Assembly (NCBI GenBank): GCA_000165345.1 | Contig: CM000434.1 | Location: 224,001 to 288,000, forward strand | Length of the DNA stretch: 64,000 bases | Reading direction: 5' to 3' | Shown here: one piece after another, positions 1,419 to 63,797 of the stretch | Layout of the letters: the number at the start of each line of letters is the position of its first letter | Numbering within the stretch: position 1 is the first letter of the stretch | Notes under the pieces: model-generated | Database searches by the model: none | What the model was told of the DNA's origin: nothing | The model's input: only the letters and a program-made list of their open reading frames with translations | Translations under genes and position numbers: made by a program

Positions 1419-4400
1419 ATGTCAGCTTTATTCTCGTTAAATTTTAGAAACCAAAACAAATCAAAGCAGGAAAAGGAGGAAAACTTGACTAAAGAGACAA
1501 AAATAGAAAAAATAGAAGTCATGGAATCAAATTTTCAAAAGAATACAGAAAATATGAAATTTACGATTAAAAATGAACAGGTAGAAGATCAACAAGCAGA
1601 TATTTCTATACAAATAAAGGAGTCAAATAATGATAATGAAAAAGATTGTGTGCTTTTACATTCTGATACTTTGAGTAAATACCAAAAACAAAATCTTGAA
1701 ACTTTTGACCCTATAAACTCAAAATGGTACACAGAATTTGACAAAAAGGGACGAATTTCCTGTGTAGGAAGTCATGGAAATATCCGTATTTTAGCTGGGG
1801 ATACTTTAGCTTTAAGATTATATAATGGTACAATTCAAGGTGAGAGCTTTGTTATTACCATAGAAGATTTCTTTGGAAATAGAAAGATTATTCCTCCAAA
1901 AGATACAGATTCTTTAGGAAATTTCTATTGGGACCTAAAAATAACTGAACCAGGCTCTGTTCAAATTTCTATTTCTGTTGTAAATTGCTTTCAAGAATCA
2001 AAAGAAATCATCCAAAAGCTTAATGATAATTTAATAACTAATACAATCATTGTAGAACCAAAACTATATATCAACAATAACTTTATCCCAAGCTCAGGAA
2101 TTTGTATGCAAACAATTCTTAGTCAATGTTTAGGTAATATTCAAAACTGGAAGAGACGCCTTGAAATTACTTCAAAGCTTAATTATAATATGGTTCACTT
2201 TACTCCTTTACAGATTTTTGGCCAATCTGGATCCTGTTATTCCCTAGCAAATCAAAATGAAATATCCTCTTTATTCTTTAATAATGAATTTGATAAAGAC
2301 CAAAGCCAAAATTTGACTAATAAAGATACAAAGTCTATTCAAAATGATACTGAGACTAAAAAAACTTATACACCTGAAGAAAAATATAATTTCCTTAAAC
2401 AAGTTATTAATGAGTTGGAAATAGACTATGGGATCTTATCTGCTTGTGATGTAGTTCTAAATCATACTGCAGATAATTCTCCTTGGTTAAAAGAGCATCC
2501 TGAATCCGGTTATAATTTGGATAACTCTCCTCATCTTACAGCAGCTGTTGAACTTGATCAAAAATTGCAAGAATTCTCAAGAAATATATATCACGGAAAA
2601 TATTTAAATTCATATGGGATTAACAAAAATATTAATAATATTCAAAATGTTGATTCAGTCATTTCAGCTTTAAAGAATGAGGTTATTAACCCTTTCAATA
2701 TTAAAGATTTCTTCACTCTAAATATTAATGAAATCATTCAAAATTCTAAAATGGGTAATTCTTCTCAATCTATATTAGATCCTAAACAAGAAAGAGAGTA
2801 CAATGATATGATTAAGAGAATCAATGAAAATGATACCTTTGAGAATAAAATCTATAATCTATCCCTCTTCTTTTCATGTTCAAGTAGATCCAAGAAAATC
2901 ACAATTCCATCATATATTCTTAAAAAGATGAATCTTTCAAATATTTCAGAAAATATATTGGAAAATGTTCAGAATAGACTCTTTGAGTTTTCTGAACAAA
3001 TTTCAAATAATATTTGTAACTCAATTAGAGGTCTGGTAGTTTGGGAAAGAGTTGAATGTAGCAAAGGGCCAATAGGACTGAATCACTGGGAATCATTAAC
3101 CCCAAGGTACTTTACCCCAATTGAAGATTCTCAAGGAAGGACTCACTATCTCGCAAATAACGGCTGGGTAATGGGATGGAATGCTAAAGAAGACTTTGCT
3201 GCTCCTGGATCTTTTGTTTATCTTAAAAGAGATTTGATTGTTTGGTCTGATTGTGTTAAGCTCAAATATGGAAACTGTGAATCAGAATCTACATTTCTAT
3301 GGAAATGGATGTCTGATTATTGTAAGAGTATTGCAAATATATTCCATGCAATTAGACTTGATAACTGCCACTCTACTCCTCTCCATGTTGCTAAACATAT
3401 GCTCAGAGTATGTAGGGAGACCAGACCAAATATATGGGTATATGCTGAACTTTTCACTGGTGACTACGAAGTAGATTTAGAATTTGAAAGAACTCTTGGA
3501 CTTAATGCTTTAATTAGAGAAGCTATGAGAGCTGAAACACCAGGATCTTTAGGGAATTACGTAAGCAACTATAGTACAGCTCCAATTGGAGGCTTATCCA
3601 CGGTTCCAAGTTTATTCCAAGCAGTTAATTCCGAGAATCTAAATAAAAAGAGTAACCAAGAAACTCTTATATCACTTCCTATACTGCAAGGAGCTAAACC
3701 TCTCAAGAGACTCTCATGTCCAGCAATCTTCTTTGATTGTACTCATGATAATGAAACTCCTTGCGAAATCCGTACTCCTATTGACACTTTACCAACAGCA
3801 GCTTTGGTTGCTTCAACTAATTGTGCTCTTGGCTCTACCAGAGGTTTTGATGAGATTGTACCTCATAATATTAGTGTAGTATCTGAAAGACGACTTTATC
3901 AAAACTATATTGTCAATGTTAATGGAGATGAAAAAAGTCAACCTAAAGGCAAAGAATCAATAGAATTAAGCTTAAGATCAAGATCTAATAGTTTTGGTCC
4001 ATTTCAGAAACTTGCTAGTAATTATCTCACAGAGCCTTCTACAATTAACTGGAACTTTGGAAAAATCAAAAGTAATAATTCCAATATCTCCACAGAAATT
4101 ACTGTTGAATGGAGACATCCTGCCAATACTGTTGAAATACGTGGAGATTGGGATGACTGGAAAGAAGGTATTCAACTTGAGAAACATCCAAACGGTAACT
4201 TTATCGCAAAACTCTTTATTAGGTTTGGAATGAAGCCAGAACAAACTCAAATTCATGATCAAGAAAGTAAGAGTCATAACTCATCCAAAATTATTTATCC
4301 AATTAACCATCGTCTACAATATGAATATAAGTACATTGTAGATGGGAATTGGATGCATGATCCAAATCTACCCTATACTTCAGATGATAAAGGAAATACC

Positions 4401-54455: not shown

Positions 54456-54529
54456 GGCTGGATGGCCGAGTGGACTAAGGCGCAGCATTCAGGTTGCTGT
54501 TTTCAGGGGTTCGAATCCCCTTTCAGTCA
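54456..54529 (+). tRNA. tRNA-Leu(CAG)-like gene, 74 nt, with an atypically short variable region
   Basis: The acceptor is GGCTGGA/TTCAGTC (two G-U pairs) with discriminator A. The class-II-style D-arm is GCC-GAGTGGACTAA-GGC. The anticodon arm is CAGCA-TTCAGGT-TGCTG (anticodon CAG, G37). The T-arm is AGGGG-TTCGAAT-CCCCT. A T5 run follows immediately downstream. The gene resembles human tRNA-Leu-CAG (GTCAGGATGGCCGAGCGGTCTAAGGCGCTGCGTTCAGGTCGCAG...) but only TTTTC (5 nt) sits where the long variable arm should be. Confidence 0.6.
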
Positions 54530-56920: not shown

Positions 56921-59143
56921 TTACAACATTCCAAACTGGTTTTGATTGTTCAATAGAAATTGACCATAAAGTAGAGATTGATTATTGTTAACGCTTTGCA
57001 AAAAGGCTGAACTGTCAAAAAAGTTATTCAAGCTCGGCTGTCTAAAATTAAGGCTATGTTTTAAGTTATCTGCAGTCATTGGCTGTACGAAAGGGATCCC
57101 TTCATTATAGTTAATGCTAGATAAAGTTTGATAGCCAGACCTTAGAACACCATTATTGATGATCTGCTTGATTTGCTGGGAAACTGAAATAAATTCAGTC
57201 AGTTCAGTTAAACTAAAACTGTCCATCTTTTCACGCAGCGTTGAATCAAGAAGATTTTTTGCTGTCTTTTTACCCTCATCCTCGATAAAAGATTTGCCAT
57301 CGCTTAATGGCGATTCATGATAAGCTTCATTGTTTATTGCCATAACCTTTTGAAGAACAGCTATGCTGTTTGAGATTGTTGGACGTATTTGGGACACGTC
57401 ACAATTGAATTTAAATACGTTCAGTTTGCATGCGAGAACTAATGTTAGTGATTCAATCTCACCAAATTCCATCGAACCAAAAAATTTCTCTGCATATCCG
57501 TCGAGGCATAATTTCCAGCCTTTGTTGCGATTATCATAGTAAATTCCCTTCCACAGGCCCTCAGAGTCAGATAGGGCATTGCTTATGATATCTTTGAGCA
57601 TCAGCTGGGAGTCATTGTTATAAGAAACAATTCCCATACTCGGATTAATAATTGGAGTGGAAGGAACAATATTTGGAGAATTTACACAAGTCGTAAAATT
57701 CGTTCCATATTGTTGAGCTGGTGGTTGAGGAGTAGCTACCTTAGAGAAACAATGGATTGGAAGTCCCGTTGTTCCCTGTAAATTAACTGCGTTCCTAACA
57801 TTCATCATGGTACTTGCGAATAAATTATTCGCAATAATTTGATTCACAAGAATGTTATTAAGGATATTGTTAGTTATGTAATGAGAGAGTAATTGACTGT
57901 TGACATCTAAGTCTCCCTGAGAGGGAAACGATAATAGATTATTTAAATTTCCATTTAAAGGAACGGAGTCAGTGTTAAGTGGTTTGAATGATCCATCGAT
58001 ATAATTGTTGCATATCCTACTATTCGAACTAATATTCTTAAAAATATTGGTTCCATTTACAGAAGCACTATCGGTAATCTGGCTTTCAAGGCTCTTTTGT
58101 CCAGAAATTTGTCGTTCAAACAACTCATTCTGGCCGTCCTTTGAAAGGATTGGAGATACCTGATTATCGGATTTTCCATCTAATCTACGAGAGTTCTCAG
58201 AATTCCTGGCTGATTTTGAATCATTCCCAAAGTTTCCAATAATGTTAACTTGATAGAACCTAAGAGCCATTTCATACGACTTTTCAACTCCATATCTTTT
58301 TGCGGAGAAATACCTTGAAATTTCGGTTTGTCTTTTGCGAATACGTACCTGCCAACCATGATTCCTCCGGTCATAGTATATTCCTTTGAGAGATAGGCTA
58401 CGAAAGCCTTTGTTTGTAAGGCTAATTGCCTTGTCAAGATCCTGTGCGCTAATTCCTCCACTATTACTACTGCTACTCGCCCCTACTCCACCATGAGAAC
58501 TGCTACCACTAAGTTTGTTCTTACTAGTCCTTACAGCCCTTTCTCTTTTGGTTTGGAGAGGTTTCTGTACGGAACTATCGGATATAGTCGTTTTAATGAT
58601 ACCAGTTAGATGTTCCTCATCAATAGTTTGAATTAACGATGAACTAGACTGAGAAGTAGGGAATGCGTCAGTCATAGAGGAAGAAGAAACGGTGGATGAG
58701 CCTGAACTGGATAATTCCGTAAAATCTGTCGGGTTCAGTTCTTCTGACAAACCACCATTATATCCAGAACTGATAAGCTCTTCCTCATTAGATTTATTCT
58801 GATCTAACCTAAAATCAGAGCCTATAGATTCAAGCAGTTCTGTTAAATTTGGATTGTTAGTTTGAACTTCGGGTGTGGTTTGATAAGGAATTCGGTTTGC
58901 GAAAGCTATCATCGAATGTTGTAAATACGGAAGATTTGGGTTCAAAGCTACCGGAAGTTTATTCAAGGTCTGCTGTAAATACGGATTGAGATCGTTACTG
59001 AGGGATATGTTTGGAGAGCTACCTGTATTAGCTATTCTATTTGATGCAGCGAATGATGATGCTGAACTTGATGAGCTGCTTGTTCCACAATTGATACTTG
59101 GTAAATAGCCGTTGTAAAAATGTTGCATTCTCTGGAATCCCAT
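56921..59143 (-). CDS. ApiAP2 transcription factor with two AP2 DNA-binding domains, 740 aa
   Basis: AP2 domain 1 is KGIYYDRRNHGWQVRIRKRQTEISRYFSAKRYGVEKSYEMALRFYQ (DNA about 58250-58410). AP2 domain 2 is KGIYYDNRNKGWKLCLDGYAEKFFGSMEFGEIESLTLVLACKLN (DNA about 57405-57560). Both follow the apicomplexan AP2 pattern GV.YD...W.A.W....R.F....G.E.A...A. The remainder is low-complexity S/N-rich sequence. Confidence 0.8.
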   Translation of the reverse strand: MGFQRMQHFYNGYLPSINCGTSSSSSSASSFAASNRIANTGSSPNISLSNDLNPYLQQTLNKLPVALNPNLPYLQHSMIAFANRIPYQTTPEVQTNNPNLTELLESIGSDFRLDQNKSNEEELISSGYNGGLSEELNPTDFTELSSSGSSTVSSSSMTDAFPTSQSSSSLIQTIDEEHLTGIIKTTISDSSVQKPLQTKRERAVRTSKNKLSGSSSHGGVGASSSSNSGGISAQDLDKAISLTNKGFRSLSLKGIYYDRRNHGWQVRIRKRQTEISRYFSAKRYGVEKSYEMALRFYQVNIIGNFGNDSKSARNSENSRRLDGKSDNQVSPILSKDGQNELFERQISGQKSLESQITDSASVNGTNIFKNISSNSRICNNYIDGSFKPLNTDSVPLNGNLNNLLSFPSQGDLDVNSQLLSHYITNNILNNILVNQIIANNLFASTMMNVRNAVNLQGTTGLPIHCFSKVATPQPPAQQYGTNFTTCVNSPNIVPSTPIINPSMGIVSYNNDSQLMLKDIISNALSDSEGLWKGIYYDNRNKGWKLCLDGYAEKFFGSMEFGEIESLTLVLACKLNVFKFNCDVSQIRPTISNSIAVLQKVMAINNEAYHESPLSDGKSFIEDEGKKTAKNLLDSTLREKMDSFSLTELTEFISVSQQIKQIINNGVLRSGYQTLSSINYNEGIPFVQPMTADNLKHSLNFRQPSLNNFFDSSAFLQSVNNNQSLLYGQFLLNNQNQFGML

Positions 59144-59431
59144 AAACTATCAGTTCCCTTGTATATCTAGGGCAAAATTCTATTGAGAATCTTTAATTCT
59201 CCCCTAAATCCTTGAAGTATTCTTTTTATATCTTCTTAATACCCTAAAATCCCTGATTCATTAGGAGCGTTGACTAACTCACAGTTTTGTAAAGATGAAT
59301 AGCCCAATCACACTTCAATTTGTGCCATACTCTTTCTTCTTATTTCAATTCTTTGATTTTTATCTATTATTGCAATTTTAACTGTTATTTTATCCTCCTC
59401 CAAGATCTTAACAAATTAATGATAAAATGTT

Positions 59432-59535
59432 AGGCGGGCTGTCTGAGTCTACACAAATGTCGAGTTATAAGTGTGAGGCATTTTTTTTTGAGGGGGCTTT
59501 TCATGTCCAAATTGTAGCTGTTAGCCCGCCTAAAA
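59432..59535. promoter_or_regulatory. Inverted pair of GC boxes, TTAGGCGGGCT ... AGCCCGCCTAA, about 90 bp apart and 100-200 bp upstream of the ATG at 59641
   Basis: ttaggcgggctgtctgag at 59432 and gttagcccgcctaaaaaatc at 59521 are exact reverse complements over 10 nt. Confidence 0.45.
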
Positions 59536-59640
59536 AATCTCAAATATTGAGTTTCCTCGTAAATGTGGAATTATATGCCAGTTTACCATTAATTGCCGAA
59601 AGGTAACTATCCTGATACGTTTATTTCTTTGATCCAAGTG

Positions 59641-60876
59641 ATGCGGATCAAAGATCGCTTTTTAATCTGTATCATCCCACTTCTCCTTATATTTGGAGCT
59701 GGCCTATATAAAAATAGAAATGCTTCTGATTTTGAGATATTTTCAAGGCGGTATTGGGACTTTACGAGGTAAGCAATTGTAAGGCACATTTTTTGTTCCG
59801 ATTATATTAAATTAATGTAATAAATTTATAGGTTTATCTCAAATGATTTCAGTTCTACATATTATCACTTTCTAATTGGCCTAACAGTGATCGTTAATAG
59901 AGGTTTAATTGGCGGAGACGAATTAGTTTCGAATGCATTTGAATTCTTAGGTTCAAAAAATATTTTAATTAAAACAATTGGGTTTTGGGATGTATCTCCT
60001 CCCGGAACTCCTACTCTCACCATTTTGTTCTTAATACTGACTTTATGCAAGCTTTATTCAACTCTCACAAATTTGAATCGTTCGGGGTGTTATCGAGGAT
60101 GCAAGTTTCAGAACAAAGATGCAATAATCGAAAATTTGGATCATGACTTGGGAAGGATTGTCAAAGTAATGGCAAAAGGCAAACATAATAAGTCTCTAAA
60201 GGGCGAAAGAGTGGGAGTAGTCGATATAGGAGGGAGTTTTTTAACAAAAGAAATCTTAAGACTAGAAAATTCGATCAATACACTCTCCCATATTTCTTCA
60301 GAAATAACTGAGTCACTTTACAATTTTATTTCTGCATTTCACTTCAATCAGGCAGACTTCCCTGACTCAAATGAGTTCTCTAATTTAAGATCAGAAGCTG
60401 TTGTAAATAAACTACAAGGAAGTCTAAATGCTATGCAGAATAACAACGCAAATCATGACTACAATGACCAAGTACAATCTTCGAACCTATACTCTAATAT
60501 TTTTTCGGTTCAAAGCACACACAATCCCGCCTCTTGCGTAAATGCGCAATTTTCCACGCATTTTAAAAACGGGAAATCAATTGAGAACCAGATACATGGT
60601 AACGGTTATTTGGATGAACAGAGACACCAGGAACAGTTTAACTCGGAAGCTCCAAAAGTACAGTCTTCCGGAAATGAATACAGCGTTCCAACACAAATCC
60701 CCAACATTGAAGCCAACAATGCAATAAGTAATCCTGAATTATATATAGATGATACACTTTTACAAGGTAAAGACACGAACTTCGATGATGCAAGCCGCAT
60801 CGAATATAATGGGGGAACCCCGAATGCGAGCACAACATACGAATTCAATTCTAACATTTACTCGAGCTTAATATAG
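59641..60876 (+). CDS. Hypothetical multi-pass membrane protein. Proposed two-exon model: join(59641..59768,59832..60876), with the track's GTG-start ORF 59887 being internal
   Basis: Exon 1 (ATG CGG ATC AAA GAT CGC TTT TTA ATC TGT ATC ATC CCA CTT CTC CTT ATA TTT GGA GCT...ACG AG) encodes MRIKDRFLICIIPLLLIFGAGLY..., a signal anchor or TM segment. It ends at donor AG|GTAAGC at 59769. The acceptor TTTATAG|G at 59831 (or alternatively TTTCAG| at 59852, in the same frame) continues in phase 2 into ...FISNDFSSTYYHFLIGLTVIVNRGLIGGDE... That reading is stop-free and in frame with ORF 59887..60876. If no intron exists, the first ATG is 60169. Confidence 0.45.
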
Positions 60877-61009
60877 TATAAAGATTTCAAATACCCAATA
60901 TAGAACTGTATTTGTAGATAAGTAGCATTTATAAATGTAATAATTAATATAATTTATTTAGAAAAATGATTCCTGTGTAGATTTACTATCGCAACAGAGT
61001 AACCCAAAA

Positions 61010-63136
61010 TTACTTTTCTTTTGGCTTGCATACTGGAGTACTAATTGCTGAGGTCTGGACATCATTTTGATTATCCACGTTATTAGTGTTTGTTTCAGAA
61101 GCAACTGAATTGTTTAAGTTGAATGAGTCAATTTTATTTGTATTCTTATCTGATATAAAACTGTGGGTATTATTAAACTGTTGAGAAGCTAAGAAAGACG
61201 ACCAGAACATTGGAAATAAGGCATTCCCTATATTTGAAGCGAATCCAAAATTCGCACTATCTATTCCGGCATATCCGGTGAGGTTGGACTTACTAGCCTC
61301 ATTAGAGGGCATGAAAGATTCCGGATGGACATTACCACAGCCTGAACTTAGAACAGCTTCTGAACTACCATCCTGAAGGAGTCGAATAAATAAAGGAAGA
61401 TCATTTTTTGTTTTATCAAATGTATTTTGGACATTGGAAATAGGTTGCATAAGCCCTAGCCCTTTAGAAGATACCAATCCATTTTCTGATAAACTTCCAT
61501 TATTAATGCATGCGGCGTCTAATGCAGATCTTAGAGCAGCTGAAAACATATCTTGATTAAGGAACTTAATGCAAGATATTGCATGTAAAATTTCAGTTTG
61601 GAGTTTGGTACTAAGGGATCTAAAGTTAAGTAGTAGTGAAAGCTCGAGAGAATCTTTAGCGAAGTTTGAGTTAATATTCGAGCAAGGGACATGATTCTGA
61701 GAAAAAATGGAATTTTGGTCAAATGCTTGCCCTGGGTTTATTACACTACTTCCATTAATTGTCGCTGGGCTTGCGATATTTCCAACTGTTTTTCCATTCT
61801 CTGAGCCTGTTGTAATCTGTGTATCTTTGTTAACTTGTTTCAAAATTTGGTTCCCAAAAGAAACCAGGCCAGGATAGGTTTGAGCAAGATTCTTAAGCTC
61901 CATATCTTTGCTTGATTCTAATAAATGGCCAACATCATCCTTCATGTTTTGGCTAGTTTTTAGGTGTTTATCAATCCCCTTAGGATGCTTACGTTCATTA
62001 GGGGGGCTTGCTGCAATATTCATCTCAGCAACTGAATTAAAAGAATAGTCTTTTCTGATGTCTTCTGTTGCGAGGGACTCAGTATGGTCTTCAAAGAGGG
62101 CCATTCCTATTGGTAGGTCAGATCCATCTTTTTGTAGATGCACTGTGTGGAGTTTAATGAGCTTAGACAAGTGGGTGGAATTTATCAGAATTTGATGGCG
62201 GCTATTGAATGCATTGGTTCTCATTCTAGCGGAGTAGAATTGTTTCCATTGTGAGTCAGGCTTATTTGATTTGGCATATAAGATATAGAAGCCATTGTAC
62301 TTAAGGTCAAAACCGTTTTCGGTAATATAGGTAAAATCCTGGATATCGGAAACACTCAAATTCCGCCACTTCATGACCAGTCGCGAAAGAGGGTCACTCC
62401 CTCCCCCTCTATATCCGCCTCCGACCTTGTTCCCGTCATAGTTTAAAGGAGTGACTATATAAATGTTTCGTGTTCTATTTACTAGTGGTGGAGCATGGGG
62501 AGCTTTAGAGCAACCCAGTAGATCTTTAGATATACTCGATTTAGAAAAAACTACTCTATCAGAATCTACAGGTTGCCAATCACCTACATGGCAATTTAGG
62601 AGTGGAATACGGTACTGAACCTCTTCATTTTGTGGAATTTCAAGAGTATTACTTTCATAGAGATGCACTAAAAGTCTTGCAGCCGAAATAAGGCCCACAA
62701 GCTTTATTTGGTTAGATGACCCAATAATTAATCTCCTATAGATGGAGTCTGTTAATCTCTGAAAAAACGGTCTTTCAGTGAAGATCTGGCTACGAGTTGA
62801 AGCATTTTCATCAATTTTCAAGGAATTTTCAACTTTACGCAATTTAATTCCAGAGTCTGAGTTTTGTTTCTTCTTTCTAGTTGAAAGAGCCTTAGCAATC
62901 ATTTCATCCACAAAACCAATGTCATTACTCTCATTCTCCTTTTTAGATTCAGTTTCTGGGATCTCTTCCCTCATCCCAATTTGCAAATTCGGCTTTGATG
63001 CTTCCTGTTTCTCCCCTGAATTGTCTGTAGTGTTCTCTTCCAGTATTTTGTTTCCATTAATTTCTAATCTATTTTTTGTATTTGAAGCTTTCTGTTTCGA
63101 ATCCAATTCTATTCCATTCACTGATTCATTTCTCAT
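61010..63136 (-). CDS. Hypothetical protein with a conserved-looking globular core and low-complexity N/S-rich flanks, 708 aa
   Basis: A long ORF with a confirmed ATG. I recognise no domain. A GC box at 63596 (atgccgcctaatc) lies upstream. Confidence 0.55.
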   Translation of the reverse strand: MRNESVNGIELDSKQKASNTKNRLEINGNKILEENTTDNSGEKQEASKPNLQIGMREEIPETESKKENESNDIGFVDEMIAKALSTRKKKQNSDSGIKLRKVENSLKIDENASTRSQIFTERPFFQRLTDSIYRRLIIGSSNQIKLVGLISAARLLVHLYESNTLEIPQNEEVQYRIPLLNCHVGDWQPVDSDRVVFSKSSISKDLLGCSKAPHAPPLVNRTRNIYIVTPLNYDGNKVGGGYRGGGSDPLSRLVMKWRNLSVSDIQDFTYITENGFDLKYNGFYILYAKSNKPDSQWKQFYSARMRTNAFNSRHQILINSTHLSKLIKLHTVHLQKDGSDLPIGMALFEDHTESLATEDIRKDYSFNSVAEMNIAASPPNERKHPKGIDKHLKTSQNMKDDVGHLLESSKDMELKNLAQTYPGLVSFGNQILKQVNKDTQITTGSENGKTVGNIASPATINGSSVINPGQAFDQNSIFSQNHVPCSNINSNFAKDSLELSLLLNFRSLSTKLQTEILHAISCIKFLNQDMFSAALRSALDAACINNGSLSENGLVSSKGLGLMQPISNVQNTFDKTKNDLPLFIRLLQDGSSEAVLSSGCGNVHPESFMPSNEASKSNLTGYAGIDSANFGFASNIGNALFPMFWSSFLASQQFNNTHSFISDKNTNKIDSFNLNNSVASETNTNNVDNQNDVQTSAISTPVCKPKEK

Positions 63137-63797
63137 ATTATCAACATTGATGCAAACCTACTCAATTGCCGATATATTACTTGAAATGAATCATGAAGAT
63201 ATAAAGCAGCCCTATATTATACTGTACTATTCATATAGTGAGATTTCCCAAAGCTTTACAAGTAAAGCCTTCCGAGATACCCCTTCAATTGAAGTATCTA
63301 TTGAGAATAAATTTTTGAAAAGTAAATTCCAAAAGTATTAGGTGCACACTATTCATTTCAAATTATCATTAAAGTTGCCACGACATTGCAACATAATCTA
63401 TCTTAACCTTTGTAATTTGTATTAACTAAATTAATTAACAATTATTCACCTACGCCTCGTCTTGTCAAATATTAGCTATTATTTAATAATTTGAATTTAT
63501 TAATATTGAAAAATTTATGTTATATATTCTAAGACGCAAAGTTTAAAAAGCATGATTTATTTATTAAATACATTACTCTGTTGAGGGGCAATGATGCCGC
63601 CTAATCTATTTTTTCATTTAGTCTTTAATTACATGTAACTACAATAATTAAGATTGATAAAAATTTCGATTATGGGAATAATTTCTAAGTTAAGAGGCTA
63701 ATATAATTCTAGAGTACGCCATTTTCTATTAAATATTGTGAGCTCTACACTTTAGCATCGAAAAGTTTGCTCGAAATTCGAATTTTGCATTTGACAA

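Follow-up and report, generated by a model that had tools for sequence, protein, structure and literature searches.

In Cryptosporidium (C.) parvum, an E2F-like upstream motif, referred to as motif 4 (TTTGGCGGGAAV), has been described, the core of which is GGCGGG (Oberstaller et al. 2013, PMC3734150). E2F motifs dominate the peaks obtained from sporozoites with the assay for transposase-accessible chromatin with sequencing (ATAC-seq), over half of which carry an annotation as bidirectional promoters (bioRxiv 10.1101/2025.01.17.633476). As for gene structures in this parasite, the annotators of the IOWA-ATCC genome state that every intron is supported by RNA sequencing (RNA-seq) (PMC8744675). 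Here, we consider a gene on C. parvum chromosome 6, cgd6_1150 (also named cpbgf_6001150 or CPATCC_002629), which is found in a stretch of 64,000 nucleotides (nt) from contig CM000434.1 that was analyzed as a whole and is referred to as the window. The G+C content of the window is 30.5%, and its positions 58141-62376 match CP141123.1:279541-283776, on chromosome 6 of the C. parvum assembly GCA_035232765.1, at 100% identity. A mechanical list of open reading frames (ORFs), the ORF track, presents the gene as a GTG-initiated ORF (59887-60876) that is flanked by two minus-strand genes.

We conclude with high confidence that cgd6_1150 is composed of two exons, 59641-59768 and 59832-60876, separated by a 63-nt GT-AG intron (59769-59831); two GC-rich boxes upstream of exon 1 are predicted sites of the E2F type. 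The structure of the gene, its conservation and the constraint on its coding frame are direct observations of this analysis, while the targeting and topology of the protein, the binding of E2F and the gene that the boxes serve are inferred. A literature search for cgd6_1150, cpbgf_6001150 and the CPATCC identifiers returned no paper.

Two-exon structure of cgd6_1150

The gene is made up of the following elements:

59641-59768, plus strand: exon 1, 128 nt, phase 2, matching the annotated start of the coding sequence (CDS) of cpbgf_6001150 / CPATCC_002629
59769-59831, plus strand: GT-AG intron, 63 nt (GTAAGC...TTTATAG)
59832-60876, plus strand: exon 2 including the stop codon, which holds the track's GTG-initiated ORF (first position 59887) and Met 60169, the former start
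59846-59852, plus strand: alternative acceptor TTTCAG, defining an 84-nt intron; a site without conservation

From ATG 59641, the reading begins MRIKDRFLICIIPLLLIFGAGLY... (in a longer form, MRIKDRFLICIIPLLLIFGAGLYKNRNASDFEIFSRRYWDFT), i.e., the product of exon 1 starts with MRIKDR, continues with an N-terminal hydrophobic segment and later reads ...SRRYWDFT. The donor is TACGAG/GTAAGC (here and below, a slash within a splice site marks the exon-intron boundary), with its GT at 59769, and the first acceptor, TTTATAG/G, ends at 59831. The unspliced frame terminates at a TAA within the donor (TAA at 59770), at which translation would end if the intron were retained. Both the 63-nt and the 84-nt join keep the frame of the GTG ORF and contain no stop codon, yielding products of 390 and 383 amino acids (aa), respectively. 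The 390-aa product is an exact match to QOY40993.1 (CPATCC_002629, IOWA-ATCC) and WRK32712.1 (cpbgf_6001150), and in the telomere-to-telomere (T2T) annotation GCA_035232765.1 the gene spans exactly 59641-60876, i.e., 1236 nt, which is the sum of 1173 and 63. The 383-aa product has no match in the protein collection. Spliced transcripts were also sought in the Logan assemblies, where the contigs carrying cgd6_1150 are all genomic.

Orthologous loci were compared from C. hominis, C. meleagridis, Cryptosporidium chipmunk genotype I, C. ubiquitum, C. canis, two species represented by Logan assemblies, C. ryanae, C. felis and C. muris. The last of these is a gastric species, as is C. andersoni, and is treated in the literature as evolutionarily far from C. 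parvum. Exon 1 is recognized in ten species, as far out as C. muris. Both the ATG and the exon length of 128 nt are kept in nine of the ten, C. muris among them, and in one Logan species the exon measures 125 nt. Among the eight closest species, the ATG, the G/GTAAG donor and the AG/G of the first acceptor are all identical, while the length of the intron is 62, 63 or 64 nt; the exons would therefore be out of frame in half of these species unless the intron is removed. In C. felis, the 128-nt exon 1 is followed by a G/GTAAGG donor, an intron of 53 nt and a CAAG/G acceptor; in C. muris, the corresponding elements are an exon of 128 nt, a G/GTGAGT donor, an intron of 80 nt and an ATAG/A acceptor, which together lead to a product of 375 aa. 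Splicing yields 347-391 aa in all ten species with exon 1, and intron retention leads into a TAA or TGA in the donor.

The same boundaries are seen in the pattern of sequence divergence. The identity of the intron to that of C. parvum is 0.60-0.83, and a 40-nt sliding conservation profile gives 0.75-0.83 for exon 1, 0.57-0.61 for the intron and 0.73-0.80 for exon 2. In the proposed frame, the ratio of nonsynonymous to synonymous changes (pN/pS) is 0.21-0.35 for exon 1, compared with 0.6-1.7 in the other two frames, and variable sites in this exon are distributed as 16/11/30 over codon positions 1/2/3; for the first 85 codons of exon 2, pN/pS is 0.29-0.40. Judged from these alignments, purifying selection on exon 1 is confined to the proposed frame. 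By its consensus sites, the restoration of the frame upon its removal, the relaxed constraint in its interior and its length changes by other than whole triplets, the intron is of the spliceosomal GT-AG type.

The public records hold at least five conflicting models of this gene, which are grouped here by product length:

235 aa (Iowa II, 2004) and 229 aa (C. hominis TU502): start at an internal Met
367/368 aa (CAD98662.1, CUV06541.1): ATG 59720, another frame, donor 59780
324 aa (CPHLJ_6g1150, CPCDC_6g1150)
390/391 aa: the model confirmed in this analysis

One alternative to the last of these is the 84-nt intron, i.e., use of the acceptor at 59852 instead of, or in addition to, that at 59831, which would result in a 383-aa isoform without RFISNDF. 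The open frame of this join and the quality of TTTCAG as an acceptor speak for it, as does the presence of the site in C. hominis and C. meleagridis. Outside C. parvum and these two species, however, it is missing, namely from both Logan species, C. canis, C. ubiquitum and chipmunk genotype I. The 63-nt acceptor, by comparison, is the same in 8/8 species, and its AG is the first past the donor region. In addition, the seven residues that the longer intron would remove are conserved as coding sequence, and the 383-aa product is found in no public model. We consider the use of this acceptor improbable as an account of the gene: the 63-nt model is the conserved one, and minor use of the 84-nt site may occur in C. 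parvum. The older view of a single exon translated from either Met 60169 (235 aa) or the GTG, with the upstream ATG opening a small or upstream ORF (uORF) that ends at TAA 59770, is annotated in C. parvum Iowa II (XP_627487.1) and C. hominis TU502 (XP_666730.1), and the annotations of C. muris RN66 and C. ryanae likewise begin internally. Yet Met 60169 is not conserved, and the 112 codons that precede it are under purifying selection without a start codon of their own. No in-frame ATG is found between the acceptor and Met 60169, and because of this and the lack of conservation of that Met, the conserved coding segment could not be translated without exon 1. Furthermore, the splice sites are conserved and frame-shifting length changes are restricted to the intron, and C. 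muris DNA holds a conserved exon 1 and intron despite an annotation that omits both. A single exon is thereby hardly credible. We give just as little credence to the remaining published models, in which ATG 59720 is either read in another frame up to a donor at 59780 (367 aa) or used with the donor at 59769, joined to a far acceptor at about 59950 (324 aa). Both stand in public records (CAD98662.1 for the former, CPHLJ_6g1150 / CPCDC_6g1150 for the latter), and GTAAGG at 59780 could plausibly act as a donor in C. parvum, but ATG 59720 is a GTG in C. hominis and is absent from C. meleagridis, neither chipmunk genotype I nor C. ubiquitum retains the donor at 59780, the alternative frames have a pN/pS near 1, and the 324-aa model removes a conserved coding segment.

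A first-pass annotation, made from the letters of the window, had proposed that the track ORF lacks an ATG-initiated 5' exon with a hydrophobic leader, joined to it from a GTAAGC donor across an intron of 63 or 84 nt. The exon at ATG 59641 is indeed annotated, conserved and constrained in frame, and the donor and the 63-nt intron agree with the current annotation and are conserved across species; of the two joins that it had offered, each open in frame, the longer depends on the non-conserved acceptor discussed above. That the exon had been missed is true of the ORF track and of the older 235-, 229-, 324- and 367-aa models, but not of the current reference annotation. Exon 1 and the 63-nt intron are already part of the current C. 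parvum annotations, and for C. parvum there is nothing new in them. The first-pass annotation had also pointed to the N-termini of orthologues: the 391-aa model of C. hominis (OLQ17525.1) agrees with the two-exon structure, and exon 1 is present in the DNA of C. muris. It had named orthologues that start at Met 60169 as an outcome that would count against the exon; this Met is not conserved, Ile taking its place in C. meleagridis, chipmunk genotype I and C. ubiquitum. A reading of the sequence alone thus recovered a gene model that had been overlooked both by the mechanical ORF track and by the reference annotation of 2004.

In other species, the comparison bears on the annotations themselves. 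N-terminally truncated models are annotated in C. muris RN66, C. felis and C. ryanae, and those of C. muris and C. felis are correctable with the help of the conserved exon 1 and intron. In C. muris RN66 (positions of the locus extracted from DS989729.1), the orthologue is annotated as a CDS at 2690-3613 on the minus strand (307 aa), starting from an internal Met; upstream of it, exon 1 is found at 3770-3897 and the intron at 3690-3769 (both minus strand), exon 1 reading MGINYFIKIPCVIFTSFYFLGLWHF...RFWDLS, and the public model appears to be truncated. The C. felis orthologue (positions of the locus extracted from JABXOJ010000022.1) is annotated as a 107-aa fragment at 3190-3570 (minus strand); exon 1 is located at 4195-4322 (minus strand), and joining across the 53-nt intron yields 357 aa. 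In C. ryanae, the region upstream of the annotated 230-aa protein (positions 2580-3000 of the extracted locus) is without a recognizable exon 1, and the conserved non-coding block and both GC boxes that are described below are present at 2475-2580. The annotation of C. ubiquitum (around 3129-3196 of the extracted locus) places the acceptor 6 nt downstream (GCAGGTTTAG/C), with a 68-nt intron and a product of 385 aa; the genus-conserved AG would yield a 62-nt intron and 387 aa. This model may be slightly off, or the two sites may constitute a tandem acceptor.

A predicted membrane protein

The mean Kyte-Doolittle hydropathy over 19 residues exceeds 1.6 in two segments, with 1.88 for residues 7-25 and 1.65 for residues 104-122 (TLTILFLILTLCKLYSTLT), and a borderline value of 1.26 is found for residues 57-75; all three peaks recur in C. 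muris, where the N-terminal segment reaches 1.48. At the N-terminus, MRIKDR forms a positively charged n-region in front of the hydrophobic FLICIIPLLLIFGAGL, a segment that is kept in the orthologues. This combination of a charged n-region and a hydrophobic stretch, as detected in the Kyte-Doolittle scan, most likely represents a signal peptide or a signal anchor. The segment at residues 104-122 is already contained in the GTG ORF, and is missing only from the 235-aa model that starts at Met 60169; the earlier description of the GTG ORF as soluble was therefore overstated. The multi-pass protein that had been expected from the addition of exon 1 fits two clear hydrophobic segments and a borderline one, for which the term is generous; a multi-pass topology is plausible.

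The product of cgd6_1150 is thus predicted to be a membrane protein with two clear hydrophobic segments, and it is found in Cryptosporidium only. No Pfam family matches the protein, and a profile search of 1.84 billion representative sequences returned matches in Cryptosporidium proteins only. The C-terminal ~270 residues are largely of low complexity. At the very C-terminus, the motif N-x-Y-S-S-L-I (60853-60873; NIYSSLI) is conserved in the nine orthologues in which this end of the protein was recovered, with the variants NFYSDMI in C. muris and NIYPDLI in C. ryanae. The motif conforms to YxxPhi, the pattern of tyrosine-based sorting signals, and may serve as such a signal. Basic residues follow the second hydrophobic segment, which suggests that the C-terminal region is cytosolic.

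In the proposed sequence of events, exon 1 would supply the sole usable start codon together with the N-terminal hydrophobic segment, which would insert the protein into the membrane of the endoplasmic reticulum as a signal peptide or signal anchor. The second hydrophobic segment would come next, followed by a C-terminal region that is probably exposed to the cytosol.

GC boxes and a conserved block in the divergent intergenic region

Upstream of exon 1, cgd6_1150 faces a divergently transcribed gene that encodes an AP2-domain protein, cgd6_1140, and the two genes have a common intergenic region of 497 bp. The elements of this region and its surroundings are:

59430-59440, plus strand: E2F-like box 1, TTAGGCGGGCT, 201-211 nt upstream of ATG 59641
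59523-59533, minus strand: E2F-like box 2, TTAGGCGGGCT, 108-118 nt upstream of ATG 59641
59403-59483, no strand assigned: conserved non-coding block, including box 1 (AGATCTTAACA...TAGGCGGGCTGTCTG.GTCTAC...GTCGAGTTATAAGTGTGAGGC)
59143, minus strand: ATG of cgd6_1140, the AP2-domain gene (740 aa), divergent neighbor of cgd6_1150
61010-63136, minus strand: neighboring gene of 708 aa
130-202, minus strand: transfer RNA (tRNA) gene, Rfam RF00005 (61.4 bits)
54456-54529, plus strand: tRNA gene, Rfam RF00005 (54.9 bits)

Sequences of this type are strongly enriched in the window. With at most one mismatch, TTAGGCGGGCT has five matches, compared with 0.14 expected, and GGCGGG is present in 15 copies, compared with 1.67 expected (nine-fold), 14 of which are located outside long ORFs; on their own strand, most of these copies are of the form (T/A)GGCGGGAA or GGCGGGT/C. 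Both boxes upstream of cgd6_1150 are conserved in position, with an unchanged GGCGGG core, in nine species of the intestinal clade, at a spacing of 71-96 nt. What is conserved of each box is the heptamer AGGCGGG / CCCGCCT, while five of the nine species have lost the pairing of the outer and inner positions of the 11-nt palindrome. The perfect 11-nt inversion is specific to C. parvum and C. hominis. On the minus strand, box 2 reads GGCGGGAAA, the published consensus, in C. canis, Logan species A, C. felis and C. ryanae.

The boxes are thus predicted E2F-type sites in a divergent promoter region, and since this region is shared with cgd6_1140, they are not assignable to cgd6_1150 alone. As sites for proteins of the E2F/DP type, the two GGCGGG boxes would most likely help to drive cgd6_1140, cgd6_1150 or both. 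The inverted pair of GC boxes had been read earlier as a feature of cgd6_1150; the positions and the perfect inversion hold in C. parvum and the motif is a published E2F-like one, but the full inversion is shared with C. hominis only, and the boxes are not to be ascribed to this gene alone. Between box 2 and the start codon, two further ATGs are found at 59563 and 59575, and if transcription starts upstream of these, short uORFs would be present in the messenger RNA.

Several observations weigh against the interpretation of cgd6_1150 as a two-exon gene for a membrane protein located downstream of E2F-type sites. For the intron, the RNA-seq support is the blanket statement of the annotators rather than reads at the level of this gene, and in C. 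ryanae a search by eye in three frames found no homologous exon 1. For the protein, a Kyte-Doolittle scan is the basis both for the choice between signal peptide and signal anchor and for the topology, and the AlphaFold2 model, at a mean predicted local distance difference test (pLDDT) score of 32, is uninformative. For the boxes, the C. parvum copies of TTAGGCGGGCT are without the T-rich and A-rich flanks of the consensus TTTGGCGGGAAV, and C. muris has a single exact GGCGGG box, in the opposite orientation, ~315 nt from the ATG of the AP2 gene and ~790 nt from that of the cgd6_1150 orthologue. This box is nearer to the AP2 gene, and the assignment of the boxes to cgd6_1150 is therefore uncertain. 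A degenerate TAGGCGG and a GGGGGG are found in C. muris ~160 nt upstream of exon 1.

Box 1 is part of a block of ~80 nt (59403-59483) with the core GTCTAC/GTGTGAGG, the identity of which is 0.91-0.93 across seven species, compared with at most 0.85 in coding sequence, making it the most conserved stretch in the 1.8-kb locus. The block is still recognizable in C. ryanae and C. felis, where identity at the protein level is only ~37-45%, and C. muris has a looser version of it. A coding function of the block was considered and discarded on account of an in-frame TAA in chipmunk genotype I and a T-run of variable length. No further copy was found in an nhmmer search of the window, and one pattern scan of metagenome contigs of the Joint Genome Institute (JGI) gave 0 matches. 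As a control, the 5' side of the 708-aa gene was examined, where a block at 63137-63216 (0.93-0.94) abuts the ATG and another is found at around 63357-63416 (0.89). The presence of comparable blocks next to this gene suggests that such blocks are a regular feature of 5' regions in Cryptosporidium and not specific to the locus discussed here. The one at 63137-63216 could be a conserved 5' leader, or the start of the 708-aa gene could need checking. The most economical reading of the block at 59403-59483 is that it is a probable promoter or 5'-leader module, conserved across species.

The inverted GC boxes could also be the closing stem of a structured small RNA of ~100 nt that spans the block, rather than sites for transcription factors. 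In C. parvum, the predicted fold is closed by a stem of 11 bp (z = -3.4), the block is conserved above the level of coding sequence, and one stem position varies between C-G, A-U and G-U; moreover, few of the expected small RNAs of C. parvum are annotated, and 43 intergenic ones of unknown function have been reported (PMC9465071). However, no Rfam family matches, covariation does not exceed that of shuffled alignments (54 of 500 reach the observed score), and the pairs that flank the conserved heptamer are those that are broken in most of the species compared. The folds of individual species disagree and differ in their interior pairings, with z from -4.4 to -0.6, and C. muris harbors one box only, oppositely oriented. 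In addition, box 2 fits the E2F consensus in the four species named above, and the similar block directly upstream of the ATG of the neighboring gene shows that such conservation is not unusual here. Alignment folding, per-species folds and pair counting thus revealed neither covariation nor consistency, and the reading of the boxes as an RNA stem was rejected; a small RNA at this position is unlikely. Somewhat less unlikely, although still a tentative proposal, is a wider one, namely that the block and the GGCGGG pair form a genus-wide unit, i.e., either a small RNA selected at the level of sequence or a multi-factor module that controls both cgd6_1140 and cgd6_1150, in which case the unit would be more than an ordinary promoter or 5'-leader sequence.

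At gathering thresholds, a search of the whole window against Rfam found the two tRNAs listed above and nothing else above cut-off. With permissive E-values, the intergenic region gave sub-threshold matches to manA-II, ceN53 and sR52 only, which were judged to be due to chance. The match to ceN53, a C/D-box small nucleolar RNA (snoRNA) model, is located at 59271-59327 on the minus strand (21 bits at E = 0.11, where the gathering score is 50); it is without canonical C and D boxes, the region is conserved among close species, and the match probably arose by chance.

Relation to described gene models, introns and promoter motifs

When compared with the current annotations of the same gene (cpbgf_6001150 in the T2T genome and CPATCC_002629 in IOWA-ATCC), the structure described here is the same in protein, span, exon 1, 63-nt intron and stop, i.e., nothing differs. 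Orthologues for which the 390/391-aa model has been adopted are found in C. tyzzeri (TRY51019.1), C. hominis (OLQ17525.1, 391 aa) and C. meleagridis, where the product is named "putative integral membrane protein" (390 aa). Nor is the intron, at 53-80 nt across species, unusual among the short spliceosomal introns of Cryptosporidium, with which it shares the GTAAG donor, the AG acceptor, the short length and the richness in A/T.

The promoters of this parasite are poorly understood, and conserved non-coding blocks that adjoin E2F-like sites are candidate regulatory elements. With the published motif 4, the boxes upstream of cgd6_1150 share the GGCGGG core, an intergenic location, a distance of 100-200 nt to the start codon and enrichment in the window. 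They differ from this motif in that the C. parvum copies are flanked by TTA...CT instead of TTT...AAV, and in that two inverted copies, separated by 92 nt, surround a strongly conserved block.

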